Shown: positions 200-24,533 of the stretch, piece by piece | Numbering within the stretch: position 1 is the stretch's first letter | Layout of the letters: every line of letters begins with the position of its first letter | Source: Clostridia bacterium | GTDB lineage: Bacteria; Bacillota; Clostridia; Oscillospirales; CAG-272 | Length of the DNA stretch: 64,000 nt | Direction of reading: 5' to 3' | NCBI GenBank assembly: GCA_017407225.1 | Contig: JAFQWY010000128.1 | Coordinates: 15,365 to 79,364, forward strand | The notes under the pieces: model-generated | Databases searched by the model: none | What the model saw: only the letters and a program-made list of their open reading frames with translations | What the model was told of the DNA's origin: nothing | Made by a program: the position numbers and the translations under genes

Positions 200-2149
200 A
201 TGAGCCTTGAAATTCTTGTTGAGTATTCCAACCGCTACGGTAAGAATCCCGCGTTTGTGCTGGCGGGCGGCGGTAATACATCCTATAAGACCGAAGATAC
301 CCTGTACGTGAAGGGAAGCGGCACCTCTCTGGCGAATATCACCGCCGAGGGATTCGTGAAGATGAACCGCGCCGCTCTCGCCGCAATCTGGGAAAAGACC
401 TACGCCGACGATCAGGCTGAGAGAGAAGCGCAGGTTCTTGCCGATATGATGGGCGCAAAACTCCCCGGCGAAGAAGCAAAGCGTCCCTCCGTGGAAACTC
501 TGCTCCATGACCTGTTCCCCCAGAAGTTCGTGCTCCATGTCCATCCTTCCTCCGTCAACGGCCTCACCTGCTCCGTTCAGGGCAAGGACGCCATGACCGA
601 GCTGTTCCCCGATGCCGTGTGGGTCAGCGAATGTGAGCCCGGCTATATCCTCGCCGCAAAGTGCAGAACCGCGCTGAACGAGCATAAGACCGAATCCGGT
701 AAGGATGCCGATGTTGTGTTCCTCCAGAATCACGGTATCTTCTTTGCCGCTGACGATAAGGAATCCCTGGATACCCTCGTTTCCGGCGTGATGGATAAGA
801 TTGCCGCAAAGCTTGACGTAAAGCCCGACTTCTCCGAAGCGGAAACCGACAGAACAGCTGCCGCAAAGATCGCTCCCGCCATCCGTATGGCCTACGACGA
901 AAACGGCGGCGCCGCTGTTGTGTTCAACTGCAATAAGACCGTTCTCGATTTCGCCGCATCTGCGGAAGCGTTTGAGATCCTCAAGCAGCCCCTGTCCCCC
1001 GACCATATCGTTTACTGCAAGGCGGAACCCGTGTTCGTGGAAGATTTCTCTCCCAAGGGCATCAAGGCAGCATTTGACGAAGTTGCACAGCGCCGCGGAT
1101 TCAAGCCCAAGGTTGTGTTCGCAAAGGGCATCGGTATGTTCACCGTGGGCGCATCCATGAAGGAAGCGAAGACTGCTGCTGAAGTGTGGATGGACTGCAT
1201 GACCATCACCACCTACGCACAGAATTTCGGCGGTGTCCGTCATATGGCTCCCGCAATGGTTGACTTCATCGTCAACTGGGAAGTGGAAAGCTACCGTGCC
1301 AAGGTTTCTCTGGCCGGTGCTGCTGCCAAGAAGCTGGCAGGCAGGATTGCCATCGTTACCGGCAGTGCCCAGGGCTTCGGCGAAGGCATTGCACGCTGGC
1401 TTGCCGACGAAGGTGCGGCCGTTGTCATCGCCGACATGAACGCGGAAGGGGCTGAGAAGACTGCGGAATCCATCGCTCAGGACTGCGGCGTTCCCACTCT
1501 GGCTGCCGCTGCGAATGTGTCCGATGAAGACAGCGTCCGGAAGATGATGGAAGACTGCGTTCTGGCGTTCGGCGGTCTGGATATCTTTGTCAACAACGCA
1601 GGCATCGTCCGTGCAGGTTCTCTGGAAGAGATGACCAAGCAGAATTTCGAGCTGGTTACCGCTGTCAACTATACCGCTTACTTCCTCTGCGCCAAGTATG
1701 CATCCGCTGTCATGAAGATCCAGAGAGAGGTTTCTCCCGAATACATGGCGGATATCATTGAAATCAACTCCAAATCCGGTCTGGCCGGCTCCAACAAGAA
1801 CTTCGCTTACGCGGGTTCCAAGTTCGGCGGCATCGGTCTGACCCAGTCCTTCGCGCTGGAACTGGCGCCCTACGGCATCAAGGTTAACGCGGTATGCCCC
1901 GGCAACTTCCTGGACGGTCCCCTGTGGTCCGACCCGGAAAAAGGACTGTTCGTGCAGTATCTCAACGCAGGCAAGGTTCCCGGAGCAAAGACCGTGGAGG
2001 ATGTGCGCAGATTCTATGAATCCAAGGTGCCCCTCAACCGCGGCTGCCGCATCGAAGACGTTGCCAAGGCTGTTGTGTACATCATCGATCAGAAGTACGA
2101 AACCGGTCAGGCAATCCCCGTCACCGGCGGTCAGGAAATGCTGAAGTAA
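200..2149 (+). CDS. Bifunctional class II aldolase / short-chain dehydrogenase (rhamnulose-1-phosphate aldolase + lactaldehyde dehydrogenase-like)
   Basis: 649-aa ORF with RBS GAAGGAAG upstream. The N-terminal half looks like a class II aldolase/adducin fold. The C-terminal half is a classical SDR (IVTGSAQGFG Rossmann motif, NNAG, YAGSK catalytic Tyr-Lys). Confidence 0.85.
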   Translation: MSLEILVEYSNRYGKNPAFVLAGGGNTSYKTEDTLYVKGSGTSLANITAEGFVKMNRAALAAIWEKTYADDQAEREAQVLADMMGAKLPGEEAKRPSVETLLHDLFPQKFVLHVHPSSVNGLTCSVQGKDAMTELFPDAVWVSECEPGYILAAKCRTALNEHKTESGKDADVVFLQNHGIFFAADDKESLDTLVSGVMDKIAAKLDVKPDFSEAETDRTAAAKIAPAIRMAYDENGGAAVVFNCNKTVLDFAASAEAFEILKQPLSPDHIVYCKAEPVFVEDFSPKGIKAAFDEVAQRRGFKPKVVFAKGIGMFTVGASMKEAKTAAEVWMDCMTITTYAQNFGGVRHMAPAMVDFIVNWEVESYRAKVSLAGAAAKKLAGRIAIVTGSAQGFGEGIARWLADEGAAVVIADMNAEGAEKTAESIAQDCGVPTLAAAANVSDEDSVRKMMEDCVLAFGGLDIFVNNAGIVRAGSLEEMTKQNFELVTAVNYTAYFLCAKYASAVMKIQREVSPEYMADIIEINSKSGLAGSNKNFAYAGSKFGGIGLTQSFALELAPYGIKVNAVCPGNFLDGPLWSDPEKGLFVQYLNAGKVPGAKTVEDVRRFYESKVPLNRGCRIEDVAKAVVYIIDQKYETGQAIPVTGGQEMLK

Positions 2150-2261: not shown

Positions 2262-3551
2262 TTACCGGAAGAGGATCTTCTGCCGGCTGGCTGTCATCAG
2301 GGCATCGGGAACACGGTAATACTTGATCAGCGGCATCAGACGGTGTCCGTCGATATCAACGGCATCGGAACCGTATGCTTCCGCACCGCCGGTCACTTCC
2401 GCATAGATGAGATCCCCGTCCATGTAGACGCCGTTGTCCTGACGAGTGACGGTTCCGGTGGTTTCCGCATACAGCAGACCGCTGTTTTCGTGGACATACC
2501 ACAAGCCTTCCGCAAGCCGCATGGTACAGCAGAAATGGGCTTCGTACATCTGTGCGGCAAGATAATCCCAGGGGCTGTCCGCGGTTACTACGGTGTCCGT
2601 ACCGGCGCCGCCGTTGGATCGCTGGAGGGAGCTGAATCCGTTGTGCCAGATCCGTGCGGCGGTGGTGCGGTATTCCTCACGGCCGGTGGCTTTGTACAGC
2701 TCCAGGGCAAGCATCAGGGAATCCACAATGGCGCACGGTTCGGTCCAGGTTTCGGGGCGTCCCCACCAGTTGAGATTCTGCCAGGTGTAGGTCATGCCGC
2801 CGCCGTGAACGTACAGATCATAGATATCCGCGGCACAGTTCAGATAATATTCCTCACCGGTTATGGTGTACATCCGCATCATGGCACGGCCCGCGGTGAG
2901 GGTACAGTGGGTCTGGGCTTTCATGGCCGCTTTGTCCAGTGCGGAATAGAAGCCGATCATTTCGTCCAGAAGCTCCTTCAGCCGGGGATCGCCGGTGATC
3001 TGATAGGCATGGGAAAGCCCGTCGATGGACATGAAGGCGGCGCAGGTATCGCTGGAAAGCTGCCATCTGCCGACGCAGCCGATTTCGCTGCCGCTGACTC
3101 CGCCCGCATTGCTGATTTCACGGCTGACGGGATATGCGGCGAACTCACCCAGGAGGGGAAGATAGAGATTCTCGGTGATAGCGCGGATCAGCTCCAGGGA
3201 ATAGTCGTCGCCGAACTGCTGCCGGTGTTCGCAGAGTCCGCGCAGAAGCCAGGAATGCCCGGAAAGCTGTTCTTCCCGGATGAGATTGTCACCGCAGGTA
3301 CCCAGATAGTTCTTTTCGTTCACCATGGAGGGCAGTTTTTCCAGCAGCTGTTCCATGCAGGGGATCTTCTGCCCGGAGATTTTGTAGTGGGAGACGAATG
3401 CCAGCAGTGCGCGTCCCTCCTTGTCGCCCATCCAGCTGTAGGACGGCGGAGAGAACACATCGTCAATCTGATAATAGGGATCGTCGGCAAGGCGGCGGTA
3501 ATTCAGCAGAATCCGCTCGTTCAGTTCGGTCAGGGATAGATTCAGTCGCAT
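2262..3551 (-). CDS. GH127/GH146-like (DUF1680-type) putative beta-L-arabinofuranosidase-like glycosidase, catalytic domain only
   Basis: 429-aa ORF. It has E271-x-C273 and C341-C342 with spacing similar to the Glu/Cys3 zinc and nucleophile site of GH127 enzymes. The sequence has an alpha-helical toroid-like character. Assigned by motif memory only. Confidence 0.5.
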   Translation of the reverse strand: MRLNLSLTELNERILLNYRRLADDPYYQIDDVFSPPSYSWMGDKEGRALLAFVSHYKISGQKIPCMEQLLEKLPSMVNEKNYLGTCGDNLIREEQLSGHSWLLRGLCEHRQQFGDDYSLELIRAITENLYLPLLGEFAAYPVSREISNAGGVSGSEIGCVGRWQLSSDTCAAFMSIDGLSHAYQITGDPRLKELLDEMIGFYSALDKAAMKAQTHCTLTAGRAMMRMYTITGEEYYLNCAADIYDLYVHGGGMTYTWQNLNWWGRPETWTEPCAIVDSLMLALELYKATGREEYRTTAARIWHNGFSSLQRSNGGAGTDTVVTADSPWDYLAAQMYEAHFCCTMRLAEGLWYVHENSGLLYAETTGTVTRQDNGVYMDGDLIYAEVTGGAEAYGSDAVDIDGHRLMPLIKYYRVPDALMTASRQKILFR

Positions 3552-3710: not shown

Positions 3711-6700
3711 TTATTTAACGGTGATGGTGTAGGTGTCGGATACAGAGGCAGTGCCTGCTGCAGCGTTGAGGGTGTAAGTAATCGAGCCGGTAGTCTTGCC
3801 GACGGAAACGCTGACAACCCAAACCTTTACGGTATCACCGGAGCTCAGAGTCTGAATCTTGGAGGTGCAGAGTTTGATGGTCTGACCGTCAATGGTGATT
3901 TTGTCTGCGTTGGGGGAGGTAGTAACGCGCAGGTTGACATTCTTGCCCTTGGCTACGGATTTGGAAAGGGGCATGATGCTGATGATTTCCACAGCTTCAA
4001 CGTCTGCAGCCACAAGGTTATTGCCGGCTTCGATGAGTGCAGCAGCAGCCGCATTGATCGGTGCCTGAGTAGCGGAGGAAAGTGCAGCCTGAGCATTGGT
4101 AAGAGCCCCTGCATATGCGTCCCAGCTCTCGGAAGTATACGCAGATGCATCGGTGTAAGCATTCGCGATCAGGTTCTTCAGGTGGTTGGAGTTGGGTGTA
4201 TCCGCATAAAGAACGCAGACAACATCGCCGTGTTTTACAGAACCCTTGATGAAGCCGCTGCCGTCATTGGAAGCGAGAGGGGTGAAGGTGTATACCTTGG
4301 TTCCGTTTACTGCTTTGAGGAAGGAGTAACCGGTGATGGAGGGGAGGTAATACTCGATGGTGTCGGTGGAATCGGAAAGGGCAGTGATCTTTCCTTCTTC
4401 GATGACATCGCCGCCTTCGGAGGTCATAACCAGAGTGAAGTAGAATTCGGGCAGTACTTCTTCGCCTTCTTCAGCCTCTTTCAGTGCATTCTTTGCATCC
4501 TGAAGAGCCTTGATTGCCGCGTTCATTTCTGCTTCGGTAGCCTTGTAGTCGGCATTGAGCTTTTCGGCAGCGGTGTATGCGTTTTCGTAAACGGCATAGC
4601 TTGCGGCGGTGTATGTGCCGTCAGCATTGGAAATCTTGTTCTTGAGAGCTTCGGTCAGTGCGGTGTGATCGGCCACATATTCGTACTTGAGAGCCTTGGC
4701 AGCAGCCTGGAGATTTTCAACAGCTTCCGCAACCTCTTCTTCGGTAGCGCCGTAGTCTGCACATACCTCTTCGGCAGCGGCGTATGCTTCTTCGTAGTCG
4801 GCATAGCTGTCGGCGGTGTAGGTGTTGTCGTCGTTGGAAATCTTATTCTTGAGTGCTTCGATCAGCGCGCTGTGGTCAGCAAGATATGAGCGTTCGGGAA
4901 CAACTGCATCGGGGAGTTCTGCATCCTTGGAGCAGCCGGTGAATCCGGGGAAGTGGTTGGGCGTCGAGGTTCTGAATCTGTAGACAGCATCGCGGACTGC
5001 AGCGAAGTCATCGTAGTTTACGGTGGAATTTACATCGGCGTTCCACATCTTGATGATGTTGGAGGCCATGCGGTCGAAAATGTAGTAAGTGAGGTTCTGA
5101 CCGACAGAGTCTTTTGCGCCGTTCCAAACTTCAGCTTCGGTGTTCAGGGCTGCATAGTCGTTCCAGATCAGGAAGTATGCGCCGCCCAGCTGCTCTGCGG
5201 GAACATCTGCTGCATTTTCGGTGTAAACACCCTTTTCGCTGATGTCGGCAGGATACCATTCGTTGTAGATATCTTCTTCGTTGGAGTGGTAGAAGGTCCA
5301 GTTGCGGTTGTCGGGGTCACGGGCATCGAGGTGAGAACCGGAAGTACCGATACGGAGCACGTAATAGCAGTTGGTCTGGATGCAGTTGTACATGGTGCGT
5401 CCGCCGTCGCCCCAGTTGTCGGATGTGCCGGTGTTGGTTTCCCAGAAGAACTTCACATGCCAGGTGGGATCGGTCCACTTACCTGTACTGGGATTGAAGT
5501 CGGAGTTCCAGTACATGATTTCGATATTGGGATCGAAGCTGTAGATTGCCTTTTCGGAGCTGCTCTGGTTGTAGGTGGTGGAGCCGATGAAGTCGTTGTA
5601 CATACGGCAGGTGTAGCCTTTGGCGTTCAGGATACGGTTCAGCTCATTGATATATCCCGGGAAGTCGGAATAGCTCCACAGGGGACCGTAGCTGCTGGAG
5701 AGGTTTACTTCGTCGGCGCCGATGGCAAAGTCAACGGAGCCTGCGTATTCCTTGAAGAAATCGGCGATGTCTTCGTAAATGGCAAATACGAAGGCTTTCG
5801 CCATGTCGCTCTTAATATTTACTGTAGTATAATAGGGCCATTTGGGGGAAGAATAGCCGGTGGTGTCGGTGTAGTTGATGCATCCCTTGTTGGAGGAAGC
5901 GTAATAGGTGGTTCCGTTATAGGTGAAGGAATAGGAGGTGTTCTCCTTGTAATTCTGTTCGAATTTCCAGGAGATATAGTCCATGTGTGCGGGGCTGTCG
6001 AAGGAAGGAACGATGTCAATGTGGTATTCTTTTGCAACATTGATGATTTCGATCAGCTCGGCAGTGGTCAGATACTTGCCTGCATCGGGGTCATCTCGGT
6101 AAGGATCCTTGACCCAGGACTGGATATGGCTGCCGCAGAGCCAGCTGAAGTCGTTTTCGGGATTGTAGTTTGCGTTGTAGTAAGTGGGATCCCAGAAATC
6201 GGCACGGAAACCGCCGTCTTCGGAGAAGTGCAGGGTCAGGGAGTTGTAGCCCATCCAGGACATCTGGCGGATGAAGTTGCAGATCCATTCAACGGTGTAG
6301 TATTTTCTCGCAACGTCCAGCTGAACGGCACGTTCCTTGGTATCCGGTGCATCGGCTGCAATAAAACCGGAAAGGGTAGTGCTGTTGAGCAGGAACTTCA
6401 TGAGCATATTGGCGCCGTAGATCAGTCCATCGGTGTCGGATGCATAAACGACTGCCGCATCGGAAACGTTGAGTTCGTATCCTTCCGCAGCAATGTCGGA
6501 AACGATGACGAGTACGATGTCGCCGGATCTTACGTAGGACTGGGGTCCCCATACAAGCTCGGCATCTGCAAGCAGGGGGAACATTTCGCGGAACTGACGG
6601 TGGAGGAGCTGAGAGGTCTGAAGGAGATCATCGGTGGGCTCGGAGGTGCTTGCGATGAAAATTCGGCTGGACGAGGTGAGCGTGAAAGTGCCGTCCGCAG

Positions 6701-6830
6701 CGCTGTAGCTGTCCAGCAATGCACCGATATTCTTCGATGTAACTGCCGCGGAGGTGGGGATGACCATTGCTGTACAGGTCATGACAGCCGCGAGTACACC
6801 GGCTGCGAGCTTCTTGACAAGCTTGTTCAT
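3711..6830 (-). CDS. Secreted GH20 beta-N-acetylhexosaminidase / lacto-N-biosidase-like enzyme with FIVAR-type repeats and a C-terminal Ig-like domain
   Basis: 1039 aa. N-terminal signal peptide (MNKLVKKLAAGVLAAVMTCTAMVIPTSAA). GH20 motifs SFDSPAHMDY and IGADEVN (Asp-Glu catalytic pair). Two clear tandem repeats of about 70 aa (ADH[ST]AL.EALKNKISN.D.TYTA.SYA.YE.AY.AAE) plus a third degenerate copy. A beta-rich tail follows. Confidence 0.85.
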   Translation of the reverse strand: MNKLVKKLAAGVLAAVMTCTAMVIPTSAAVTSKNIGALLDSYSAADGTFTLTSSSRIFIASTSEPTDDLLQTSQLLHRQFREMFPLLADAELVWGPQSYVRSGDIVLVIVSDIAAEGYELNVSDAAVVYASDTDGLIYGANMLMKFLLNSTTLSGFIAADAPDTKERAVQLDVARKYYTVEWICNFIRQMSWMGYNSLTLHFSEDGGFRADFWDPTYYNANYNPENDFSWLCGSHIQSWVKDPYRDDPDAGKYLTTAELIEIINVAKEYHIDIVPSFDSPAHMDYISWKFEQNYKENTSYSFTYNGTTYYASSNKGCINYTDTTGYSSPKWPYYTTVNIKSDMAKAFVFAIYEDIADFFKEYAGSVDFAIGADEVNLSSSYGPLWSYSDFPGYINELNRILNAKGYTCRMYNDFIGSTTYNQSSSEKAIYSFDPNIEIMYWNSDFNPSTGKWTDPTWHVKFFWETNTGTSDNWGDGGRTMYNCIQTNCYYVLRIGTSGSHLDARDPDNRNWTFYHSNEEDIYNEWYPADISEKGVYTENAADVPAEQLGGAYFLIWNDYAALNTEAEVWNGAKDSVGQNLTYYIFDRMASNIIKMWNADVNSTVNYDDFAAVRDAVYRFRTSTPNHFPGFTGCSKDAELPDAVVPERSYLADHSALIEALKNKISNDDNTYTADSYADYEEAYAAAEEVCADYGATEEEVAEAVENLQAAAKALKYEYVADHTALTEALKNKISNADGTYTAASYAVYENAYTAAEKLNADYKATEAEMNAAIKALQDAKNALKEAEEGEEVLPEFYFTLVMTSEGGDVIEEGKITALSDSTDTIEYYLPSITGYSFLKAVNGTKVYTFTPLASNDGSGFIKGSVKHGDVVCVLYADTPNSNHLKNLIANAYTDASAYTSESWDAYAGALTNAQAALSSATQAPINAAAAALIEAGNNLVAADVEAVEIISIMPLSKSVAKGKNVNLRVTTSPNADKITIDGQTIKLCTSKIQTLSSGDTVKVWVVSVSVGKTTGSITYTLNAAAGTASVSDTYTITVK

Positions 6831-6922
6831 AAATTAACATTTACCTTCCTTTTCAGAATCCGCATGATGCCTGATGCAGTATGAAACTTCCGCATTTCTG
6901 CCGATTCTGTGTTGTTGCACCC

Positions 6923-6951
6923 ATTATATCACACCTATACAGCGAAAGCAA
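6923..6951 (-). promoter_or_regulatory. Sigma-A-type promoter of the GH20 gene
   Basis: Minus strand: TTGCTT-17 nt-TATAAT, about 90 nt upstream of ATG 6830. Confidence 0.6.
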
Positions 6952-6976
6952 GATGTTTTTTCGAGTTTTTGCGCTA

Positions 6977-7018
6977 TTTTATGCGATTGCATAAAATATT
7001 TTACACAATCGCATAAAA
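6977..7018. repeat. 42-nt near-perfect palindrome (candidate operator) upstream of the GH20 promoter
   Basis: TTTTATGCGATTG-CA-TAAAATATTTTA-CA-CAATCGCATAAAA. The 13-nt arms are perfect complements and the 12-nt centre is itself palindromic. A further half-site-like ATATGCGTTTG lies at 7023..7033. Confidence 0.8.
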
Positions 7019-7056
7019 TAAAATATGCGTTTGTATAAAATAACTTTGGCGGATGC

Positions 7057-7093
7057 CGAAAAAATGCATGGAGGGGAACAGAACCCTCCATGC
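7057..7093 (-). terminator. Intrinsic terminator of the PqqD-peptide-kinase-rSAM operon
   Basis: Perfect 10-bp stem GCATGGAGGG / CCCTCCATGC with an 8-nt loop. The minus-strand tail is ATTTTTTCG. Confidence 0.85.
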
Positions 7094-7119
7094 GGTGGAT
7101 TGAAGAATATGAATCAGAT

Positions 7120-8232
7120 TCATTTGCGGAAAGATTCTGCCACTGTACGCAGTTCTTCCTTGTACGCCCGGTTCAGCCGGCACATGTAATCCGGTCTGCC
7201 ATCCAGTGTGCCGGTTTCCGTATAGACAACGGCAGCGCAGTTGAGGCAGGTATCGCGGTCGGGGCAGCTGACACAGTCCGGGCAGAGACGGATGGATGCA
7301 CACGCTTCGTGAAGCTGTTTCCAGCATTCCGTGAAAGAAGAGCTGAACGGACGGAAACAGATATTGTCCAGCATTCCGCAGGGCAGCATTCTTCCGTCCC
7401 AGGTGATCCAGAACTGCGAGTGCCCGGCCAGACAGCGGATCGGGTCACCCAGATCGGATTCGCAGGGGTTGGGATGGGCAGGTGCGTTTTCGGCAATTCT
7501 GCGGGTGATTCCCTCAATTCCTTCCCGGATAAAGATATCCCGGACGGCACATTGCGCGGCTTCTTCGGGGGATAGCCGTGAAAAACCGTCTGAAGAGGGA
7601 ACATCGGCACGGCGAACGGGAGGGAAACAGTAAGTGGTAGTCTGCAGATCCAGGTGATGTGCGGCCGCAAATGCTTCCAGCTCGTCAAGACGATGCCTGT
7701 TCTGGGGCGTGAGCGTGGTATTCAGATGCAGGAGAATTCCCTCCGACTGTAGCCATTCAATATTTTCGGTGACCTGCCGGAAGACATCGCCGTTACCGCA
7801 CAGGGCAGCATAATCCTCGGCGGAGGTGCCGTACAGGGTGATATTGACCTGCGCCGGGGGAAGCCGATGCCAGAGACTGCGGATTTCCGGGGTGAGAAGA
7901 GTGCCGTTGGTATTGATGCTGATGGAGAGACCGAGCTTTACGAATTCTTCGTAGAGATATGGAAAATCCTTGCGGAGAGTGGGTTCGCCGCCGGTGATCA
8001 GCAGAAAGAGGAGACCGGCATCCCTTGCGTCCCGTGCGAGCGCGATCCACTCTTCAGCAGTGACTTCGCGGCCGATTCTGCTCATTTCTTCCGGAGACAG
8101 CCGGATATAGCACATTTTGCAGGAGAGGTTGTATCGCGGTGTCAGCTCAAAAGTGCCGCTTACCGGAATTCCCCGGGCAGCACATCTGCGCTGAAGGGTG
8201 CGGCGGATTACTGCGGTATCAGTATGTTCCAT
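7120..8232 (-). CDS. Radical SAM / SPASM-domain peptide maturase (non-canonical YX3CX2C cluster motif)
   Basis: 370 aa. TPRYNLSCKMCY sits where T.RCNL.C..CY is expected. GGEPTL SAM-binding motif. The C-terminal SPASM signature is C-x13-G-x4-C followed by CPDCVSCPDRDTCLNC. The start overlaps the upstream gene by 14 nt. Confidence 0.85.
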   Translation of the reverse strand: MEHTDTAVIRRTLQRRCAARGIPVSGTFELTPRYNLSCKMCYIRLSPEEMSRIGREVTAEEWIALARDARDAGLLFLLITGGEPTLRKDFPYLYEEFVKLGLSISINTNGTLLTPEIRSLWHRLPPAQVNITLYGTSAEDYAALCGNGDVFRQVTENIEWLQSEGILLHLNTTLTPQNRHRLDELEAFAAAHHLDLQTTTYCFPPVRRADVPSSDGFSRLSPEEAAQCAVRDIFIREGIEGITRRIAENAPAHPNPCESDLGDPIRCLAGHSQFWITWDGRMLPCGMLDNICFRPFSSSFTECWKQLHEACASIRLCPDCVSCPDRDTCLNCAAVVYTETGTLDGRPDYMCRLNRAYKEELRTVAESFRK

Positions 8233-9097
8233 GTCGGGACTCCTTTCCGAACAAAGTCCGGTAAGCCATGAATGCTGCGTCGCTGTCCGGGCGGCAGTCG
8301 AGGCGGTAAACCGGGATTTCAGCCAGCATATCGTGATAGAGCTGCAGAAGCGTCTGCATAAATCCGGTATCCCAGCTGTTCACGAGGGTCTGGGACAGAA
8401 GTAGGGGAACCGCTGCAGATCCGAGAGAGGTCAATCGGTTTTCGGTGCATTTGCACGGCAGCAGAATCCCTGCGATGGGAAACTGTTCCGGACGGTGGAT
8501 GCCGGAGGTACCGCACCAGGGTGAGCCGCCTCCGTAAAAGACTCCGTTCCGGTTCATGACGACACAGCGGTCGCCGTTGAGGATTTCTGCTCCGAGATGT
8601 TTCTGCCAGAGGGAGGCCTGCGTGGATTTTCCGGCACAGGCGGATCCGGCGAACAGAACCGTTTTTCCGTGAAGGGAGACAACGGAGCTGTGGAGGAGAA
8701 AGGCATTCCGGCGGATGAGCATGATTTCAGGGGCGAGAAAACGGAGGGGCTGCAGCGGATGGGAATAAAAATGCCAGGACGAAGCGGGATAATACAGAGT
8801 ATTTTTTTCGTCCGGGCGCAAAAGACAGGCCACCTGGCATCCATTTTCTGCGGTAAGCGCATGATGGATGCGAAGCCGGCCTTGTTTGGTCAGATACTCG
8901 GTTACGCCGTTTTCCGAATGAAGCACCGTACCCGTGGGGCGGAGGGGCTCATCCAGCAAACGGATGTAAAATTCAACATCCGGAGTATCGGTGTCATCGC
9001 AGCGGAGATCCGTCAGGGAAGAGGGAAGCTCCGCGCCGTGAGGAATATGAAACCGTACGGTAATTCCGGAGAAGAAAATACACAGGGGGAACGTCAT
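8219..9097 (-). CDS. HPr-kinase-like (HprK C-terminal domain family) P-loop protein, putative peptide kinase
   Basis: LLHSSVVSLHGKTVLFAGSACAGKSTQASLW resembles the HprK/P-loop core. The start is uncertain. ATG 9097 lies 7 nt after the peptide stop and has no SD. The alternative ATG 9160 would overlap the peptide gene. Confidence 0.7.
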   Translation of the reverse strand: MTFPLCIFFSGITVRFHIPHGAELPSSLTDLRCDDTDTPDVEFYIRLLDEPLRPTGTVLHSENGVTEYLTKQGRLRIHHALTAENGCQVACLLRPDEKNTLYYPASSWHFYSHPLQPLRFLAPEIMLIRRNAFLLHSSVVSLHGKTVLFAGSACAGKSTQASLWQKHLGAEILNGDRCVVMNRNGVFYGGGSPWCGTSGIHRPEQFPIAGILLPCKCTENRLTSLGSAAVPLLLSQTLVNSWDTGFMQTLLQLYHDMLAEIPVYRLDCRPDSDAAFMAYRTLFGKESRHGTY

Positions 9098-9104
9098 GGA
9101 GGAC

Positions 9105-9362
9105 TCAGGAACTGAAAGCTGCGTTTGCGTTGGTGTGGTAGCAGATGGAGTCGAATTCATCCATGCCGATCGGGTAGTCGACGCAGGAACCTTCGTTGAA
9201 GAAGCCTTCCCATGCGAGGTCCTTCATCTGGTTGGTGGAATCGTCGTCTCTCTTGACACATTCGGAATCTGTGAAGTTGATTTTTGTTGAGCAGGTTGCG
9301 ATGGACTGGGTGAGTTCAAAGTACTCAACTGCCATTTCGGGCTTCTGGTAAGTTTTCTTCAT
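9105..9362 (-). CDS. Candidate RiPP precursor peptide (85 aa, acidic, 4 Cys, C-terminal Ser-Ser)
   Basis: The ORF fills the gap between the PqqD and kinase genes on the same strand. The N-terminus MKKTYQKPEMAVEYFELTQS has Y-x-x-P-x-M and a Thr 13 residues after the Tyr, as in lasso-type leaders. Cys at 24, 35, 60 and 74. It ends ...NANAAFSS. The SD is weak (AAGGCAGG). Confidence 0.55.
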   Translation of the reverse strand: MKKTYQKPEMAVEYFELTQSIATCSTKINFTDSECVKRDDDSTNQMKDLAWEGFFNEGSCVDYPIGMDEFDSICYHTNANAAFSS

Positions 9363-9380
9363 TTATAATATGCCTGCCTT

Positions 9381-9659
9381 TCAGTTGGATTGGTTGTCGG
9401 TGAGGAAGCCTTTCTGCCGGAGCTGGCTGACAAACTCAGCAACATCCTCGGCAGCCTGACTGGGGGTGATTTCATATTCATCCAGCAGGGCGGCGGTAAG
9501 ATCTTCTTCTGTACGCTCTGTCTGCAGAAGCTCGAACAGGAAACGGGCACACTCGTTCAGCGTGATGATGCCCGAGAGTTTCCGGGATGCTTCGCCGGTG
9601 GGGACAACGATGGTTTCGCCCGCGATTTCGCGGATGATGAAGCCGGGGATAATTCGCAT
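9381..9659 (-). CDS. PqqD-family peptide chaperone (RiPP recognition element)
   Basis: 92 aa from ATG 9659. The sequence ...GIITLNECARFLFELLQTERTEEDLTAALLDEYEITPSQAAEDVAEFVSQLRQKGFL matches the PqqD winged-helix pattern. The longer ORF to 9962 is an artefactual extension across the promoter. Confidence 0.85.
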   Translation of the reverse strand: MRIIPGFIIREIAGETIVVPTGEASRKLSGIITLNECARFLFELLQTERTEEDLTAALLDEYEITPSQAAEDVAEFVSQLRQKGFLTDNQSN

Positions 9660-9716
9660 GATAAGAGCTGTTCCTTTCCGTGGGACTTCAGAGTGCAGAA
9701 TAAAGATACATACCAT

Positions 9717-9745
9717 ATTATACTCCAAAAAAAACGTTTTGGCAA
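9717..9745 (-). promoter_or_regulatory. Sigma-A-type promoter of the PqqD-peptide-kinase-rSAM operon
   Basis: Minus strand: TTGCCA-17 nt-TATAAT, about 57 nt upstream of ATG 9659. Confidence 0.65.
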
Positions 9746-9808
9746 TAGGGTTGCGTAAAATTATTCGCAAATGGATGAAAAAATTATCCTGAATTGTAAA
9801 AAATACCA

Positions 9809-9837
9809 TTGACGGCAGGGAAAAGGCGTGATATAAT
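9809..9837 (+). promoter_or_regulatory. Sigma-A-type promoter of the fibro-slime gene
   Basis: TTGACG-17 nt-TATAAT. A leader of about 140 nt, with hairpin potential, precedes ATG 9977. Confidence 0.65.
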
Positions 9838-9976
9838 AAGTTATGAATATAGTGACGTACTGTACCCGTTCGCGGAACAGATGCCGTACTGCATGGCAGA
9901 TGCAGAATACGGTGATCGCAGCGGTCGCCGTATGACAGAAATATCCAGAGAGAATTCTCCAAGGAGGAATATACTA

Positions 9977-12900
9977 ATGAAGAAAAAAAGTATGAGCAGC
10001 AGAATTCTATCGTCTCTGCTCGCGCTGGTGATGGTGCTCTCGGCAGTGCCCCTCAGCGTATCCGCCGCATCCAAGGGCGACCTTGCGAATGTCGATACCG
10101 GTCTGTCCGGGAATATTGACACCGACAAGGTTTACAGCCTTCCGATTACCATCCTCGACTACGAAGCCGACGGTATGCTCTTCGAGTTTGCGGAATCAAA
10201 CGGACAAAAAAAGCCCAGCGATTTCGGTGCTACATATGTCTGTGACTACACCGATGACTTTAAGGATGTAAACGGTTATACAGGCGATAAGACCGACACC
10301 GTTATTTACAAATATACAGCCGACTATTCCGTCAATCTGCAGAATTCGGGAAATGACGGACAGTTTATGCGTGTGAACTATCTGAGCGATGGTGATAACG
10401 ACGGTACAGACTATATTACCAATTTCACTTCCTCGGTTTATGACGATGCTACCGGTACAGACTATAAGCTGAGCCAAATCAGATATCTTGTCTTTGTATA
10501 CAGATGCCCGACTGCCGGAACTATCAGCAGCAGCTCCATGTCCTTCTCTCTGTATACCGGAACTTCTTTCGGCAGCGATCCTTCTGCTTCCAAGAAAACC
10601 AATGAGTTCAGCATCAGCAGAAACGATAACTGGAAGTATCAGATCGTTGACCTTTATGAAACCGGAGAAGAGGCTAATACTGCCGTAAACGGTATTCTGA
10701 TGAATTCTCCTGTCAAGAAATCCGGAGATATCATCGATGTCGCATATGCGGTATACTTTGATACCGACAGCTATGCACTGGCACAGGCGTTTGCGGAATA
10801 CGCAGTAACCAAGGGCAGTGACAACGGTGACCACCGTGGTTTTGGTATGCTTCGCGGTTCTAATAACGAATCCGGCACCACTGTTTTCGATGCTGCATAC
10901 GAGCACAGTGATACGGCATCCACCGTCAAGCTTATGTCTACTTATAAGGACAGCAGCGGTACCGATTTGGCGAGCATCGATTTTTCTACTATTGATAATT
11001 TCGGCTATAAACTTTTCGGTATCTTCGATGACAACGGTATCGGTACTGCCGGACTTCTGGAAAGCAGTCTCAGCGATGAAGGATATCCCGTATATAAGGA
11101 AAAAGTTGTCTCCTATCTGGCAAATCTTCTTCAGGTTTCTCTGGAAATTCCCGAAAGAACAGAGGACGGCTGGAAGAACTACAAGTACATCAAGGGTACT
11201 CCGTCTGACGTATACGGCGGCGTGGACTTTGCAACCGCGCTCCGCACCAGAATCAATGCTGATGACAAAACCGATGAAGAGGCTCTCGGCGCCTATGACG
11301 AATCCGCAGCGAAGGGCCTGATCGGCACCTGGGAAAAAGTCGAAGGAAAAATTTCCACTTACTTCGATGCGGCATACTTCATACTGAACAGTATTTTTGT
11401 GGACAACTCCTACAATGTTCCTCAGGATGACTACAAGTATCTGGTTCTCTCCCAGGGTACCGACGCTGATACCGGGGATACCGTTCATGTATTTGACGCC
11501 GGTTTCGCAACCACGAACGATCCCGACACGGCTGAAATGGCAATCGCTTATGATACGGATGCCAAGACTATTCAGAACTCATCTGCGGCGGGCAAGGCGC
11601 ATTTCTATTATACCGCCTCCAATACCACAACGCTGAACCCCTTCCTGCCCGTAACCGACAGAAACACAGAGGCAGGTCAGACCAAGAGCGTGTACTGGCA
11701 GGATGACGGTCTGATCAATACGGTCAAGAAGCAGGCAAACAAGGATACCCTGTACAAGCACAACTTCAACTTCGCAATCAAGAGTGAAGGTGAATTCGTA
11801 TACCGTGCGGAAGACAATCTGTTCTTCGACTTTGAAGGCGACGACGACGTTTACCTGTTCATCAACGGCGAACTGGTGATGGATATCGGCGGCGCGCACA
11901 GTATCAACCATGTCCGTTTCGAACTGAACGATTACGTCAACGCCGCAAAGGCTGGTACCGATCTCGGTTCCACAAAGCGCAACGAAGCGCTCAACCTCAA
12001 GGAAGGTCAGTCCTATTCCTTCAGGTTCTATTACATGGAACGCCACAGCTACGGTTCCAATATGCGGATCATGACCAACATCCCCGTAACCGACCCCTTC
12101 ATGAAGGTGGAAAAGACCGCATATCAGAACGGTGTGCAGATCGCATACGGCGGTATCGTTGACAAGGATGCAGTCGTTGAATACGGCTTTACTGTCGAAA
12201 ACCCCGTGAATACTGCTGACGACGAGATCGATGACAGCATCAGCATTGAACCTCTCGTTGAACTTGCATTCGATGACCATGATATCGGCATCAGGATTTC
12301 CCACGACAAAGGACTTGAAGTCACCGGTTCCGATGTCTATATGCTCGACGGAACCAAACTGACCAGCTCCAATGTCAATGAATTCCTGGAAGCCGGACTT
12401 CTGAAGATTTCCAGAATCGACTCCGACGGCAATGAAATTCCCTATGAAGTCAAGAACCAGGACAACGTCAAGTCCATCCTCAACGACCCCGGACAGGGTA
12501 CTGCCGATGATCCCATCGGTCTGATCAGCGGCGAAAAGCTGGTTGTCAGAGGCTTCGGCTATAAACTGACTAAGACTCAGGTGGAAGCAGGCTTCTTCGA
12601 CAACACTGTATACGCGGAAGCAACCGGTGAAGTGACCGGCGAACCTCTCCAGAGCCAGGCGAGAATGCGTGTATACGTTCCCGCTGACCCGATGTACTAT
12701 CAGTGGGCAGGCAAGCCTCTGGTGGTTACCATTGACAAGCTGATTACAGATGTCAAGGCGGCTGCTGCGGATGACGACAATATTCTTCACAAAGATAATG
12801 AAGAGATTCAGAACCTTACCGCGAAGAACATCAAGAGCGTGGCGTTTGTAAACCGTACAGGGGATCAGACCATCGTCTATGACCATGTTGCCAAGGCTTC

Positions 12901-15094
12901 CAACAACGATCTGACGATCAATTATCCCGAGGCAGGGTCCTACGTATTCTACGTAAAGATCACCTACAGTACTTCCAGCCCCGTTACCGTTCCCGTTCTG
13001 GTCAACGTACCCGATGTCAAGGACAGCAGCTATGTTCTCGACTACGGTCTTGAGGTTGACCTGACCGCGGCACTGTTCACCAAGGAAGATCAGGTGGCTA
13101 TCCCCGGACGTTCCACCAATACTTCCATTATGGCAATCAGCAGCCAGCAGCCTTCCTACACATCGAACACCATCGGCTTTACTGCTGATACCGACGGTCA
13201 GATTGCTGGCAGCAACGGTACTTTCAAGCTGGCTGACGGCAAGCTCACCTATACCCCCACCGATTTCCTTGACAGTGCAGATTCCGTGTGGGTGGCAGTG
13301 AACGTTTATGAAGGCAACTCCTTCAGCCCGGTATCCTCCGAAGCGGGTCAGGCTGACGATACGGGTATCGATATCAACAATGAAGTACAGATGTACAAGA
13401 AGATTACGGTTCTTCCCGCAACCGTCATGTACTACGAAGATTACTTCAGCGCAATTAGCTACCCCGACCATACCAGAACCACTCCCGGTACCGTTTACAC
13501 CCAGTCCGCGGATCAGGATGAAAACTACGGTCACGATGCTGCATATCAGACTGCCGATGCAGGCAATCTGAACAGCAGCAACTCCGTACAGACACTTGAA
13601 ATCACCGATTCCTCTACTCTCGCATCCTTTACCATCGCAGGTTCCGGTTTTGAACTGATTGCCCGCACCGACGCGGAAACTTCCGGTACCATCATTGTGG
13701 ATGGTAATAAGCAGGTACAGAAATCCAGCAGCAGCGCACCTGCTTCCGCTCATATTCTGGATCTGGAAATTACCAGAGTTCCCGATGCTTCTATGCTTGG
13801 TGAAGGAAGCTCCGGTGCTCAGACTCACTGGAGAGTTCCCGTTATCATGCAGTTTGACAACGGCAACGACTTCGCCGATAATGAGATTAACGAAGCAATT
13901 TATCAGGTTCCCGTTATCCGTTACGATTTCCCCTCATCCGGCACTTACATCGTAAATGTTATCGGTGTTCCCAAGCGTGATCATGCAAACGGCGGTGCGG
14001 TTCTTCCTTCCTACCTCTATTTCGATGGTCTCCGCGTATTCCAGCCCATCGGTGCTTCCAATTCCGCTTACTCCGCAGATGAAAACGGCGCGGTGTTCTA
14101 TGAAGTACGGGATGAAATCGCGGGCGGCCAGATTGCAGTAGCATCCTATACCGCAGATACTGCTAAGGTTGTTACAAGCGGCACTATGACCTGGACCGAA
14201 GATTATTCCGACGGCGGCGTCTTCACTGATGTTTCTTCCGTTGAGGCATATTTGTTCAGCGGTCCCAACAACGAAGCATATATGCGGGACGGAGCTGCCA
14301 TGGTCTTCTATGTGAAGGAAACCGGCACCGGTGCTCATTCCCTGCAGGTTGCTCTGCGTGCGGTGGATTATTTCCTCGCATCTTCCGGTGTTGAAGTCGG
14401 TATGGAAGCTGCCATCCAATACGGTATCATCAAGGACGGCGCATTTGCATGGGCTCCCCTTGTTACCGCAAAGAGCGGCACCGAACAGTACTACACCATC
14501 GACTATACCCAGTGTCCTCAGGTGAACGGTGCATACCAGATTGCTCTCAGAGTGAATGGCGATGAAACCGAGCAGGGCATGGTATCCTACAGCAGCCTGA
14601 AGCTGGTTGGTCTGGAACTTACCGAAGCAATTACCGTTTCTTCCGGCAGTTCTCCTGCAATTTCCGCAATCTGCGCACAGATGGATGCAACCGAAATTAC
14701 TCTCCCTGCTTCCAATGTAATCGTTCCCAAGCCCTATGCTCCCATCCAGTTCCCCGAAAAGCCCCAGGATAAGCCCGAGCAGAACGAGCCTGAAACCGAT
14801 GGCAATGAAGAAGGAAAGAACGAAGAACGCAAGGAAGATCTGATTCCTCTCCTGTCCCTGTGCAAGCTTGATGTAACGGCAGGCGACGGCGGTACCGTAA
14901 CTCCCGAAGGAGATCTGGTAATCGCATTCGGTGCAAAGCGTGTCATCAAGGCTGTACCCGATGAAGGCTACGAAGTGGAAGGCATCTACGTCAACGGCAA
15001 GAACGTCGGCGCGGCTGAAAAGTACACGGTAGTAGCTACCGGCAACATGAAGGTTGAAGTGAAGTTTGTCAAGACCGATGCTTCTGCCGAATAA
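9977..15094 (+). CDS. Very large secreted protein with a fibro-slime (PA14-like) domain and a C-terminal bacterial repeat domain
   Basis: ATG 9977 is preceded by AAGGAGG. Signal peptide MKKKSMSSRILSSLLALVMVLSAVPLSVSAAS. The fibro-slime signature F.FEGDDDVYLFINGELVMDIGGAHS...FYYMERHSYGSNMRI lies at about nt 11755-12090. The C-terminal GYEVEGIYVNGK-type beta repeat follows. No LPXTG, SLH or dockerin motif was seen. Confidence 0.8.
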   Translation: MKKKSMSSRILSSLLALVMVLSAVPLSVSAASKGDLANVDTGLSGNIDTDKVYSLPITILDYEADGMLFEFAESNGQKKPSDFGATYVCDYTDDFKDVNGYTGDKTDTVIYKYTADYSVNLQNSGNDGQFMRVNYLSDGDNDGTDYITNFTSSVYDDATGTDYKLSQIRYLVFVYRCPTAGTISSSSMSFSLYTGTSFGSDPSASKKTNEFSISRNDNWKYQIVDLYETGEEANTAVNGILMNSPVKKSGDIIDVAYAVYFDTDSYALAQAFAEYAVTKGSDNGDHRGFGMLRGSNNESGTTVFDAAYEHSDTASTVKLMSTYKDSSGTDLASIDFSTIDNFGYKLFGIFDDNGIGTAGLLESSLSDEGYPVYKEKVVSYLANLLQVSLEIPERTEDGWKNYKYIKGTPSDVYGGVDFATALRTRINADDKTDEEALGAYDESAAKGLIGTWEKVEGKISTYFDAAYFILNSIFVDNSYNVPQDDYKYLVLSQGTDADTGDTVHVFDAGFATTNDPDTAEMAIAYDTDAKTIQNSSAAGKAHFYYTASNTTTLNPFLPVTDRNTEAGQTKSVYWQDDGLINTVKKQANKDTLYKHNFNFAIKSEGEFVYRAEDNLFFDFEGDDDVYLFINGELVMDIGGAHSINHVRFELNDYVNAAKAGTDLGSTKRNEALNLKEGQSYSFRFYYMERHSYGSNMRIMTNIPVTDPFMKVEKTAYQNGVQIAYGGIVDKDAVVEYGFTVENPVNTADDEIDDSISIEPLVELAFDDHDIGIRISHDKGLEVTGSDVYMLDGTKLTSSNVNEFLEAGLLKISRIDSDGNEIPYEVKNQDNVKSILNDPGQGTADDPIGLISGEKLVVRGFGYKLTKTQVEAGFFDNTVYAEATGEVTGEPLQSQARMRVYVPADPMYYQWAGKPLVVTIDKLITDVKAAAADDDNILHKDNEEIQNLTAKNIKSVAFVNRTGDQTIVYDHVAKASNNDLTINYPEAGSYVFYVKITYSTSSPVTVPVLVNVPDVKDSSYVLDYGLEVDLTAALFTKEDQVAIPGRSTNTSIMAISSQQPSYTSNTIGFTADTDGQIAGSNGTFKLADGKLTYTPTDFLDSADSVWVAVNVYEGNSFSPVSSEAGQADDTGIDINNEVQMYKKITVLPATVMYYEDYFSAISYPDHTRTTPGTVYTQSADQDENYGHDAAYQTADAGNLNSSNSVQTLEITDSSTLASFTIAGSGFELIARTDAETSGTIIVDGNKQVQKSSSSAPASAHILDLEITRVPDASMLGEGSSGAQTHWRVPVIMQFDNGNDFADNEINEAIYQVPVIRYDFPSSGTYIVNVIGVPKRDHANGGAVLPSYLYFDGLRVFQPIGASNSAYSADENGAVFYEVRDEIAGGQIAVASYTADTAKVVTSGTMTWTEDYSDGGVFTDVSSVEAYLFSGPNNEAYMRDGAAMVFYVKETGTGAHSLQVALRAVDYFLASSGVEVGMEAAIQYGIIKDGAFAWAPLVTAKSGTEQYYTIDYTQCPQVNGAYQIALRVNGDETEQGMVSYSSLKLVGLELTEAITVSSGSSPAISAICAQMDATEITLPASNVIVPKPYAPIQFPEKPQDKPEQNEPETDGNEEGKNEERKEDLIPLLSLCKLDVTAGDGGTVTPEGDLVIAFGAKRVIKAVPDEGYEVEGIYVNGKNVGAAEKYTVVATGNMKVEVKFVKTDASAE

Positions 15095-15231: not shown

Positions 15232-15264
15232 AGATAGCAGAATACAATATTTATGGAGGATCAC

Positions 15265-19197: not shown

Positions 19198-19226
19198 TTG
19201 ACAAACAGAATGGATTGTGATACAAT
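19198..19226 (+). promoter_or_regulatory. Sigma-A-type promoter of the cpsB / BY-kinase / LCP operon
   Basis: TTGACA-17 nt-TACAAT, about 80 nt upstream of ATG 19307. Confidence 0.65.
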
Positions 19227-19306
19227 ATAGTGAAAATCTATTTTTATTTCCGTTTTTCGGCGGCAGACAGGACGGTGCGGCGGAATTCCGGAACCGGAGG
19301 ACTGCC

Positions 19307-20047
19307 ATGATGCTTTACGATATTCACTGTCATATGCTTCCGGGACTGGATGACGGTGCATTTTCCATGGATGAATCCGTGCTGATGGCTGAAATGGCTG
19401 CTTCTCATCATGAGAGAGCCGTTGTGTGCACACCTCACTGGCTTCCGGACAGCGATTATGATCTGCGGACCCTTCTGGGAGTGCTTCAGAAAACCGGATC
19501 CGTTCTGCGTGAGCGGGGAATCCGACTGAAACTGATCGCCGGACAGGAGATTTTTCTGGATGAAAACTACCGCGAAACCGTCGGGCTACTGGAGTCCTCC
19601 CGTCTGCTGACCATCAACCGGTCCGTGTATCCTCTGGTGGAGTTCAGCCCGTATGTCAGCGAACATCTGGTATACAGCAGCATCGGATATCTGACGGCAA
19701 GAGGATTTATTCCCATTATCGCCCATCCGGAACGGTACAGATTCGTTATTGAGGATCCGTCCGTTCTGAAACGGATGAAAAATCTGGGGGCATTTCTGCA
19801 GATGAACAAGGGAAGCGTTTCCGGCTTTTTCGGCGGCAGTGTGCGGCGTACGGCAGAATATATGCTCAGCGCACGCCTGGCGGATTTTGCGGCAAGTGAT
19901 GCCCACAGTCCTTACCGGAGAACACCTCCGCTGAACGAACTGCACGAATGGCTCAGTGTGAATTGTTCCATGCGGTATGCGGATTTTCTGTTGTGTGAGA
20001 ATCCTCTGCGTGTTCTGAAAAACGAGAGAATCTATTCATATACTTAA
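19307..20047 (+). CDS. cpsB: PHP-family protein-tyrosine phosphatase (CpsB/YwqE type)
   Basis: MMLYDIHCHMLPGLDDGA is the characteristic N-terminus. HPERY and DAHS motifs are present. GGAGG lies 7 nt upstream of ATG 19307. The upstream part of the track ORF covers the promoter. Confidence 0.85.
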   Translation: MMLYDIHCHMLPGLDDGAFSMDESVLMAEMAASHHERAVVCTPHWLPDSDYDLRTLLGVLQKTGSVLRERGIRLKLIAGQEIFLDENYRETVGLLESSRLLTINRSVYPLVEFSPYVSEHLVYSSIGYLTARGFIPIIAHPERYRFVIEDPSVLKRMKNLGAFLQMNKGSVSGFFGGSVRRTAEYMLSARLADFAASDAHSPYRRTPPLNELHEWLSVNCSMRYADFLLCENPLRVLKNERIYSYT

Positions 20048-20084
20048 ATATTCTACGATTATCTACAGGAGTTTTCCAAACGGA

Positions 20085-20900: not shown

Positions 20901-20933
20901 TGCGCATACAGCAGAATCGGGTGATAAATAATA

Positions 20934-22403: not shown

Positions 22404-22421
22404 TCAATATGGTGTTGAATT

Positions 22422-23960: not shown

Positions 23961-23968
23961 ATGTTATT

Positions 23969-24000
23969 CTATAACCTATGCCGTCAGGTGTAGGTTATAG
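23969..24000 (+). terminator. Hairpin after BY-kinase paralog 2 (terminator or attenuator; weak U-tract)
   Basis: Perfect 10-bp stem CTATAACCTA / TAGGTTATAG with a 12-nt loop, followed by GTGTTTATT. Confidence 0.5.
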
Positions 24001-24492: not shown

Positions 24493-24533
24493 TAAAACTG
24501 ACTTGAAGCAAAACTACGGAGAAAACCTGAAAA

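Follow-up and report, generated by a model that had tools for sequence, protein, structure and literature searches.

A candidate peptide-maturation cassette of gut Clostridia that adjoins genes for giant secreted proteins

We analyzed a 64,000-nucleotide stretch of DNA from a Clostridia bacterium (contig JAFQWY010000128.1), referred to here as the window, in which a four-gene operon on the minus strand encodes a PqqD-family protein, a small peptide, a P-loop protein and a radical S-adenosylmethionine (SAM) enzyme. The data make it somewhat probable that this operon is a single member of a large family of peptide-maturation cassettes, uncharacterised so far, which are found in gut Clostridia and work together with giant surface proteins. 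Gene identities, folds, conservation, synteny and a mutation in one of the enzymes were observed directly, and from these we infer what chemistry takes place, where the peptide is phosphorylated and that the surface protein is linked to the system. In the source genome itself the crosslinking step is probably disabled, because the radical SAM enzyme carries a Cys34Tyr change, unless that base is an assembly error; a membrane-anchored partner gene found at related loci is also absent. An initial annotation of the same DNA had described a compact operon of the kind that makes peptides built on ribosomes and modified after translation (RiPPs), and had proposed a product that is both crosslinked and phosphorylated. 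That annotation was largely right: its observation is partly confirmed and its interpretation partly supported, and the RiPP-type logic that it recognized, with a PqqD recognition protein, a precursor, a radical SAM/SPASM enzyme and an HprK-fold P-loop protein, holds.

The operon and its association with a giant secreted protein

The four genes follow one another on the minus strand in the order PqqD (9381..9659, 92 aa), the small precursor-peptide open reading frame (ORF; 9105..9362, 85 aa), the P-loop protein with its GSACAGKST motif (8219..9097, 292 aa) and the radical SAM enzyme (7120..8232, 370 aa); the spacing along the operon is 18 nt, then 7 nt, then a 14-nt overlap. A consensus scan found a sigma-70-like promoter (TTGCCA-17-TATAAT, 11 of 12 hexamer matches) just upstream of the PqqD gene at 9717..9745 on the minus strand, and an intrinsic terminator with a 10-bp stem, an 8-nt loop and a T-run at 7057..7093 on the same strand. 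All of these positions and spacings, and both signals, agreed with the initial annotation. Sites resembling promoters or terminators were no more numerous across the region than in shuffled sequences; the two signals are credible because they bracket the operon exactly, not on statistical grounds. No protease, cyclase or exporter is encoded inside the four-gene unit, as had been noted from the start.

Divergent from the cassette lies the gene for a giant secreted protein (9977..15094, plus strand; 1705 aa from the ATG that begins its signal peptide), which matched PA14 with an E-value of 2e-10 and Fibro_Slime with an E-value of 1e-20. A strong promoter-like site for this gene, TTGACG-17-TATAAT with an upstream TG (9809..9837, plus strand), overlaps the TTG that opens a longer, 1761-aa ORF, and for this reason the ATG at 9977 is most likely the true start.

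Related loci were gathered by exact-protein look-ups, by a genome scan with the P-loop protein and by a metagenome scan, and were mapped by tblastn and profile hidden Markov models. The subfamily to which the window belongs comprised 15 distinct loci (the window, L001, L002, L004-L013, L019 and L020), whose PqqD, P-loop and radical SAM proteins are 43-59% identical to those of the window. The eight loci obtained by the genome scan came from metagenome-assembled genomes labelled Ruminococcus, Oscillospiraceae, Faecousia, Lachnospiraceae and Clostridia/Clostridiales, and cow and roe deer are among the sampled hosts. In 15 of 15 subfamily loci, and in four gene orders, the cassette had a homologue of the giant PA14/fibro-slime protein next to it. 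In the window the cassette is divergent from the giant gene; in L002 the order is PqqD, peptide, membrane-anchored partner, giant and GH20 (glycoside hydrolase family 20), with the two enzymes divergent; in L011 it is giant, GH20, PqqD, peptide and enzymes; and in L019 and L020 peptide, enzymes, partner, giant and GH20 are all co-directional. Gene order thus indicates that the giant gene is a conserved part of the system and not mere context. The initial annotation had used the giant neighbour as a positional hint of an extracellular role; the pairing proved stronger than it supposed, whereas the view of the gene as simple surroundings did not survive. Likewise, its picture of a compact unit was right about compactness but not about autonomy, since the giant secreted partner is always adjacent in the subfamily.

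The membrane-anchored partner, a protein of 240-350 aa, carries a hydrophobic stretch at its N-terminus; besides an acidic linker it has a conserved domain of about 175 aa, which gave an FxLYD-like match with an E-value of 1e-6. In the 11 loci that cover the start of the giant gene, the partner gene lies immediately before it, and in L005 and L013 it lies beside an N-terminal fragment of the giant gene at the locus edge, so that 13 other loci carry it in all; in L011 the partner region falls outside the locus coverage. The gene is absent from the full 64-kb window, including the interval 9660..9976, and from the near-identical contigs L017, L018 and L021.

The C-terminal half of the giant protein contains a module of about 500-600 aa (12824..14656, plus strand) that is common to large secreted proteins flanking paralogous cassettes. 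Such cassettes occur in L020, L022, L023 and L025, with P-loop proteins about 27-35% identical to that of the window, and there the peptide gene starts 2-41 nt after the gene for a large secreted protein that is either VWA-type or unannotated. Six of these large proteins (in L020, L022 and L023) are 22-27% identical to the window giant over about 500 aa of the module, and a 1178-aa protein in L025 matches the profile of the shared module. Searches of Pfam and of PDB sequences with the module gave nothing more than faint Ig-like or cadherin-like signals, and these in a few members. Pairing with a giant protein is more varied in this wider superfamily than in the subfamily of the window.

Two or three paralogous cassettes can be present at one locus, as in L020 (3682..6034), L023 (9678..12076 and 19426..20858), L024 (three) and L025 (two), and some of the cassettes in such a locus share a single PqqD gene.

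The precursor peptide family and its predicted maturation

The 85-aa peptide, which the initial annotation had read as a gene from the window alone, is real: a word-indexed search returned 76 peptide clusters at 49-99% identity, all of 83-108 aa, and a profile search of 1.84 billion representatives returned 229 clusters at E<=1e-3. The annotation had also made its proposal depend on a small ORF being conserved in homologous clusters, and the peptide gene was retained at every homologous locus. A metagenome scan with the peptide profile gave four loci, of which two (L015 and L016) were spurious 17-residue matches.

Residues Y5, P8, Q19, C24, C35, C60, C74, H76, T77, F83 and S85 are invariant in the close family, and position 10 is hydrophobic in the aligned members. 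The window peptide carries a YxxP leader, an ICYHT motif and a C-terminal F-x-S with Ser as the last residue. Counted over 142 full-length representatives, [YF]xxP is found near the N-terminus in 132, exactly four Cys in 109, a CY[H/N/F]-type motif in 119, Ser as the last residue in 129 and a hydrophobic-x-Ser ending in 124. Divergent paralogues of 115-132 aa at other loci retain the YxxP leader and the terminal Ser. A structure model of the unmodified peptide was of low confidence (pLDDT 63), a value that cannot separate a disordered precursor from a protein that folds after crosslinking.

Two other identities for the peptide were considered and rejected. A Cys4 metal-binding protein or ferredoxin does not fit Cys spacings of x10, x24 and x13, in which CxxC pairs are missing, and a substrate is what the leader and the terminal Ser indicate. 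A toxin-immunity pair formed by the giant protein and the small downstream ORF does not fit either: the C-terminal region of the giant protein is conserved, not polymorphic, and maturation enzymes follow the ORF.

The 92-aa PqqD protein matched Pfam PqqD (PF05402) with an E-value of 5e-18 and 65.6 bits against a cut-off of 23.4, confirming the stand-alone PqqD-type protein of the initial annotation; its best NCBIfam matches, all below their cut-offs, were lasso-type and PQQ-type PqqD models. Homologues of 86-95 aa were found in most of the related loci. We presume that this protein is the leader-binding RiPP recognition element. Discrete recognition proteins of lasso-type and LPP systems bind the leader motif [Y/W]xxPx[L/V/I/F/A], which the leader of the window peptide fits (PMC13381572). 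In the first step of the proposed pathway, PqqD would bind YxxP at the N-terminus of the peptide and present the peptide to the two enzymes.

The 370-aa enzyme matched Pfam Radical_SAM with an E-value of 8e-21 and could be aligned from end to end to the radical SAM/SPASM models for mycofactocin and GeoRSP, with scores far under their cut-offs; the nearest solved structures are SkfB and PqqE. The seven-Cys SPASM pattern (CX9-15GX4C ... CX2CX5CX2-3C ... C) is present as C267-x12-G280-x4-C285, C320-x2-C323-x5-C329-x2-C332 and C351, and these SPASM-type Cys residues together with G280 were invariant in a four-way alignment. Taken by itself, the Pfam SPASM model stayed below threshold (E 0.48). The "full SPASM" C-terminus of the initial annotation is therefore borne out by the Cys pattern and by the end-to-end alignments but not by the Pfam threshold. 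In the second step, the enzyme would crosslink the four conserved Cys of the peptide, most likely by thioether links of the sactipeptide, ranthipeptide or QhpC kind.

The P-loop protein would act third. Across the aligned P-loop proteins, including that of the paralogous L020 cassette, H136, the Walker A residues G156-K-S-T159 and N174-G-D176 are invariant, and R177 follows N-G-D176 in at least 90% of them. A structure model built with 58 sequences had a pLDDT of 90, and its top 46 Foldseek matches in the PDB were all PEPCK or HprK/P (probability 0.82-1.00), with a target-normalised TM-score of about 0.5 against the HprK catalytic domain. Sequence comparison gave a different picture. HprK_rel_A and HprK_rel_B matched with E-values of 0.007-0.035 over about 50 residues, scoring 13.2 and 15.6 bits, respectively, against cut-offs of 200; no Pfam family, Hpr_kinase_C included, matched at E<=0.1, and no NCBIfam ScmC model was listed at E<=0.1. 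A profile of the family searched against the PDB found mostly generic Walker-A proteins such as ABC transporters, with HprK similarly weak (E about 0.07, P-loop region only). Homologues, which form 1907 clusters at E<=1e-5, carry a precomputed match to Pfam PF27840 (ScmC); this match is graded weak for the copy on contig L021, whose gene is free of differences from that of the window. What the initial annotation called HprK-like is thus HprK-like in fold, on which the comparison with the PDB was decisive (all of the top 46 matches), but reached no threshold for membership in the sequence family. From the model, the protein is a putative peptide kinase with an HprK/PEPCK-type fold. An apparent fusion of kinase and radical SAM enzyme in L005 was rejected, as a stop codon is present.

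The HprK-type kinases of the paeninodin and pseudomycoidin systems phosphorylate the side chain of a C-terminal Ser, often several times, and hexoses can be added onto the phosphate of a phosphorylated peptide Ser (PMC6993621). In the third step, the ScmC-type protein would phosphorylate the side chain of Ser85, as HprK-type kinases do in lasso peptides of the paeninodin type. The YxxP-type leader and the terminal Ser, which the initial annotation had not used, strengthen the idea of a kinase. The "lasso-type kinase module" of that annotation was not borne out, the P-loop protein lying outside the lasso-type HprK kinase family; the term is an analogy only, the homologues of the protein pointing to Pfam ScmC and not to the family of lasso kinases. 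None of the cassette proteins fell into a family with a known non-peptide substrate, a result that the annotation had set as a check on its own proposal.

The product of these three steps would be a modified small protein of about 60-85 residues and not a short antibiotic. It would act with the giant PA14/fibro-slime protein and, elsewhere, also with the membrane-anchored FxLYD-like protein and with Wzz/tyrosine-kinase capsule genes. Because the giant secreted protein, the membrane-anchored partner and the capsule genes all accompany the cassette, we favour a role at the cell surface. In its fullest form, which we advance only tentatively, the proposal is that the cassette makes a modified small protein of a new kind, some 85 residues long, which would receive crosslinks from a radical SAM enzyme and, on its final Ser, a phosphate and perhaps then a sugar. 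Giant secreted glycan-binding proteins and the Wzz/tyrosine-kinase capsule machinery of gut Clostridia would have it as an obligatory partner, in the capacity of anchor, primer or cofactor.

Several points weigh against a peptide-modifying cassette that serves surface proteins. The chemistry is a prediction from the genes, and the low-confidence model of the peptide is uninformative. Peptide kinases of proven function are no more than remote relatives of the ScmC family. Substitution of the Asp pair D158/D159 of PsmK abolished its activity (PMC6993621), whereas the G-D-R of the ScmC family has one Asp. The link to the giant protein is one of synteny only. The peptide lacks a signal peptide, and neither a protease nor an exporter is encoded in the cassette, which makes it hard to explain how the peptide would reach a secreted partner. 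Finally, none of the three cassettes in L024 has a module-bearing giant gene inside the locus: the first has a partner-like fragment before it and, after it, a GH2 giant gene that lacks the module, and another is accompanied by an ABC exporter and a PMT_2-like, glycosyltransferase-like gene.

The last of these observations bears on a rather improbable alternative, close to the view of the initial annotation, in which the four genes are a self-contained RiPP operon that makes a crosslinked and phosphorylated bacteriocin or signal peptide with the help of unlinked housekeeping proteases and transporters, the giant gene being unrelated. A single promoter and a single terminator bracket only the four genes, whose products are typical components of RiPP pathways; a TldD/PmbA pair lies 17 kb away in the window, and the related L024 cassette has its own ABC exporter. 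The giant gene is, however, adjacent in every subfamily locus despite the four arrangements, and in several it is co-directional and tightly spaced. Conservation extends over the full 85 residues at fixed length, unlike in most antimicrobial RiPP cores, and there is no immunity gene. Because of this full-length conservation and fixed length, the tight spacing to the giant gene and the lack of an immunity gene, protease or exporter, we prefer a partner role to an antibiotic one.

A partner role could also take another form. In quinohemoprotein amine dehydrogenase, the radical SAM enzyme QhpD matures QhpC, which sets a precedent of a small, crosslinked protein in the service of a larger enzyme that is secreted; PqqA and MftA are peptide-derived cofactor precursors. 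On these models the peptide would be a crosslinked subunit or a cofactor precursor of the giant protein, with C-Y-H-T as a reactive or metal-binding centre, which we think quite unlikely. The four invariant Cys, conserved Asp and the invariant Cys-Tyr-His would suit such a centre, the position of the paralogous peptide genes 2-41 nt after the giant gene fits co-production, the giants share an unannotated module of about 500 aa, and the mycofactocin maturase model covers the radical SAM enzyme from one end to the other. Yet the peptide has neither a signal peptide nor a dedicated exporter while the giant protein is Sec-secreted, the shared module contains no recognizable redox or catalytic domain, and the P-loop protein and the terminal Ser are given no role.

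The Cys34Tyr change in the source genome

Radical SAM enzymes of this superfamily are expected to carry CX3CX2C when active, its three Cys being ligands of the [4Fe-4S] cluster by which SAM is cleaved, and CxxxCxxC was found in 120 of 120 listed radical SAM homologues; the window copy lacks the complete motif. It reads Y34-NLS-C38-KM-C41 (in the context TPR-Y-NLS-C-KM-C-Y), the first ligand being encoded by the Tyr codon TAC (8131..8133, minus strand) where a Cys codon would be TGC and where the 120 listed homologues all have Cys. The loss of one of the three radical SAM cluster ligands normally abolishes SAM cleavage. The radical SAM enzyme of the initial annotation is thus confirmed as to family but not as to an intact cluster motif. 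We conclude from the sequence that the window enzyme is probably inactive through Cys34Tyr, or that the base is an assembly error, and because the enzyme lacks a cluster-ligand Cys a crosslinked product is doubtful in the source genome.

A near-identical contig, L021, allowed a direct comparison. It is 99.93% identical to window positions 3800..11089, with 5 differences in 7290 nt, and encodes a radical SAM twin (P0077) that is 99% identical to the window enzyme and differs at only two residues, having C34 and Q261. Position 8132 of the window is T on the forward strand, where L021 has C. Four of the five differences sit inside the cassette, and all four alter amino acids. The L021 peptide (1728..1985, the twin of 9105..9362) carries Q45P and K47T, both T-to-G changes and 6 nt apart; K47 is conserved in at least 90% of the family. 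These two changes could reflect relaxed selection in the lineage or sequencing errors.

It is possible, though we would not call it probable, that the locus in the source genome is a decaying remnant without current function. Beyond the change in an essential cluster motif, the membrane-anchored partner carried by 13 other loci is missing from the whole 64 kb, and the concentration of amino-acid-changing differences in the cassette, including K47T at a highly conserved position, would be in keeping with decay. On the other hand, all four reading frames are intact, every other invariant residue is kept, the promoter and the terminator are both in place, and the twin contig has Cys34, so that Tyr34 may reflect a variant of recent origin or a mistake in base calling or assembly. 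Decay would in any case concern this copy only and not the identity of the system. Because its key enzyme carries a probable loss-of-function change, the source-genome copy is a poor choice for experiments; the interest of the family is fairly high, and that of this possibly defective copy is lower.

Related systems and surrounding genes

Catalogues have for years listed cassettes that join PqqD and a radical SAM/SPASM enzyme to an HprK-like partner, to our knowledge never with a known substrate or product. The closest of them in composition are the SynChlorMet and GeoRSP types, to which the initial annotation had compared the operon. They share a PqqD-family protein and a radical SAM/SPASM enzyme with the operon, and their third component, an ScmC-type protein that is remotely HprK-like, has its counterpart in the P-loop protein, whose homologues carry the PF27840 match, but SynChlorMet cassettes have two radical SAM/SPASM proteins (ScmE and ScmF) where the window cassette has one. 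Every Scm and GeoRSP model scored far below its threshold: ScmD gave 21.8 bits against a cut-off of 100, ScmE and ScmF gave 63.2 and 44.5 bits against 400, and the GeoRSP PqqD and radical SAM models gave 20.5 bits against 100 and 43.9 bits against 400. We know of no defined product for Scm or GeoRSP cassettes and of no identified precursor for Scm, and the system described here differs from both in its clear precursor family, its gut-Clostridia hosts and its conserved link to a giant secreted protein.

The lasso systems of paeninodin and pseudomycoidin resemble the window cassette in their discrete PqqD-type protein, [Y/W]xxP leader, P-loop protein of HprK-type fold and precursor that ends in Ser (PMC6993621, PMC13381572). 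Unlike them, the window cassette lacks a lasso cyclase, B2 protease, nucleotidyltransferase and exporter, adds a radical SAM/SPASM enzyme, and has a peptide of 85 aa with four conserved Cys and a P-loop protein outside the Hpr_kinase_C and lasso kinase families. Neither an Asn-synthetase-like cyclase nor a transglutaminase-like B2 protease was found in the operon or in the neighbouring genes scanned.

In the LPP systems of Bacillota, a recognition protein and an HprK-type enzyme act on a linear peptide with a YxxP leader and no cyclase is involved; the precursors can be long (35-200 aa), and the genes lie in or near capsular polysaccharide loci (PMC13381572). The window system shares the linear YxxP-leader peptide, the logic of recognition protein plus HprK-type enzyme, and the vicinity of capsule genes. 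It differs in that LPP phosphorylation takes place at core Ser3 and not at the C-terminus, and that the C-terminus varies among LPP but in the window family is conserved more strongly than any other part. None of three defining features of the LPP family was found in the operon or the scanned neighbours; compared with LPP and lasso systems together, the window cassette is without their cyclase, peptidases, nucleotidyltransferase and exporter and gains a radical SAM enzyme.

Sactipeptide and ranthipeptide maturases and the QhpD/QhpC pair likewise combine a radical SAM/SPASM enzyme with a Cys-bearing ribosomal peptide. Sactipeptides and ranthipeptides are defined by thioethers that join a Cys sulfur to an alpha, beta or gamma carbon; of such links the window peptide shows the candidate donors, its four conserved Cys. 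No curated maturase model reached its threshold on the window enzyme, however, and in the window the recognition domain is a separate protein instead of an N-terminal domain of the enzyme, and there is an extra P-loop enzyme. In the literature searched (SynChlorMet, ScmC, HprK/PqqD/radical SAM and VWA/PqqD topics) we found no published description of this cassette system. The cassette reached no curated family threshold. We read it, as the best account, as a RiPP-like maturation system that is uncharacterised and that has ties to proteins of the cell surface.

What the analysis adds is an explicit substrate family with sharp hallmarks, namely a YxxP leader, four Cys and a terminal Ser, which makes the chemistry directly testable. 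The family is large, with about 1900 P-loop clusters and about 229 peptide clusters, and is concentrated in the Clostridia of animal guts. Its constant pairing with PA14- or VWA-type giants and its frequent company of capsule-type genes point to peptide modification in cell-surface assembly or glycan foraging, a role not described for such cassettes. If true, this would be a RiPP-type pathway dedicated to building the cell surface and not to making antibiotics. It would parallel a 2026 report of phosphorylated linear peptides in capsule loci, whose role was unknown there (PMC13381572).

Capsule-type genes lie beyond the giant gene on the plus strand of the window: a CpsB/CapC phosphatase (19217..20047), a surface Ig-like protein (20085..20900), two Wzz-plus-ParA-like proteins of the tyrosine-kinase type (20934..22403 and 22422..23960) and an LCP (LytR_cpsA_psr) protein (24534..26009). 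An Ig-like protein and two Wzz/kinase-like proteins adjoin cassettes in L006, L007, L008 and L022; two Wzz/kinase-like proteins and CpsB lie beside the cassette in L009, CpsB being likewise present in L007 and L008; and L025 has an Ig-like protein and one Wzz/kinase-like protein. The set at 19217..26009 may therefore belong to the wider system. The TldD/PmbA-family metalloprotease pair (26066..28816, minus strand) follows at a distance of 17 kb from the cassette; pairs of this type process the leaders of some RiPPs, as in microcin B17.

A secreted GH20 hexosaminidase-type protein (3711..6830, minus strand) is a recurrent neighbour that adjoins the cassette in seven loci, with homologues at L001, L002, L008, L011, L019 and L020. 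Other glycan-degrading proteins are encoded nearby, namely a GH127-like protein (2262..3551, minus strand), a 1263-aa GH38 alpha-mannosidase with an F5/8 type C domain (15253..19044, plus strand) and a GH123 protein (31093..32634, plus strand), and together with GH20 they suggest a locus for foraging on host glycans or N-glycans. Unrelated to the cassette, a 649-aa fusion of a class II aldolase and a short-chain dehydrogenase is encoded at 200..2149 on the plus strand.

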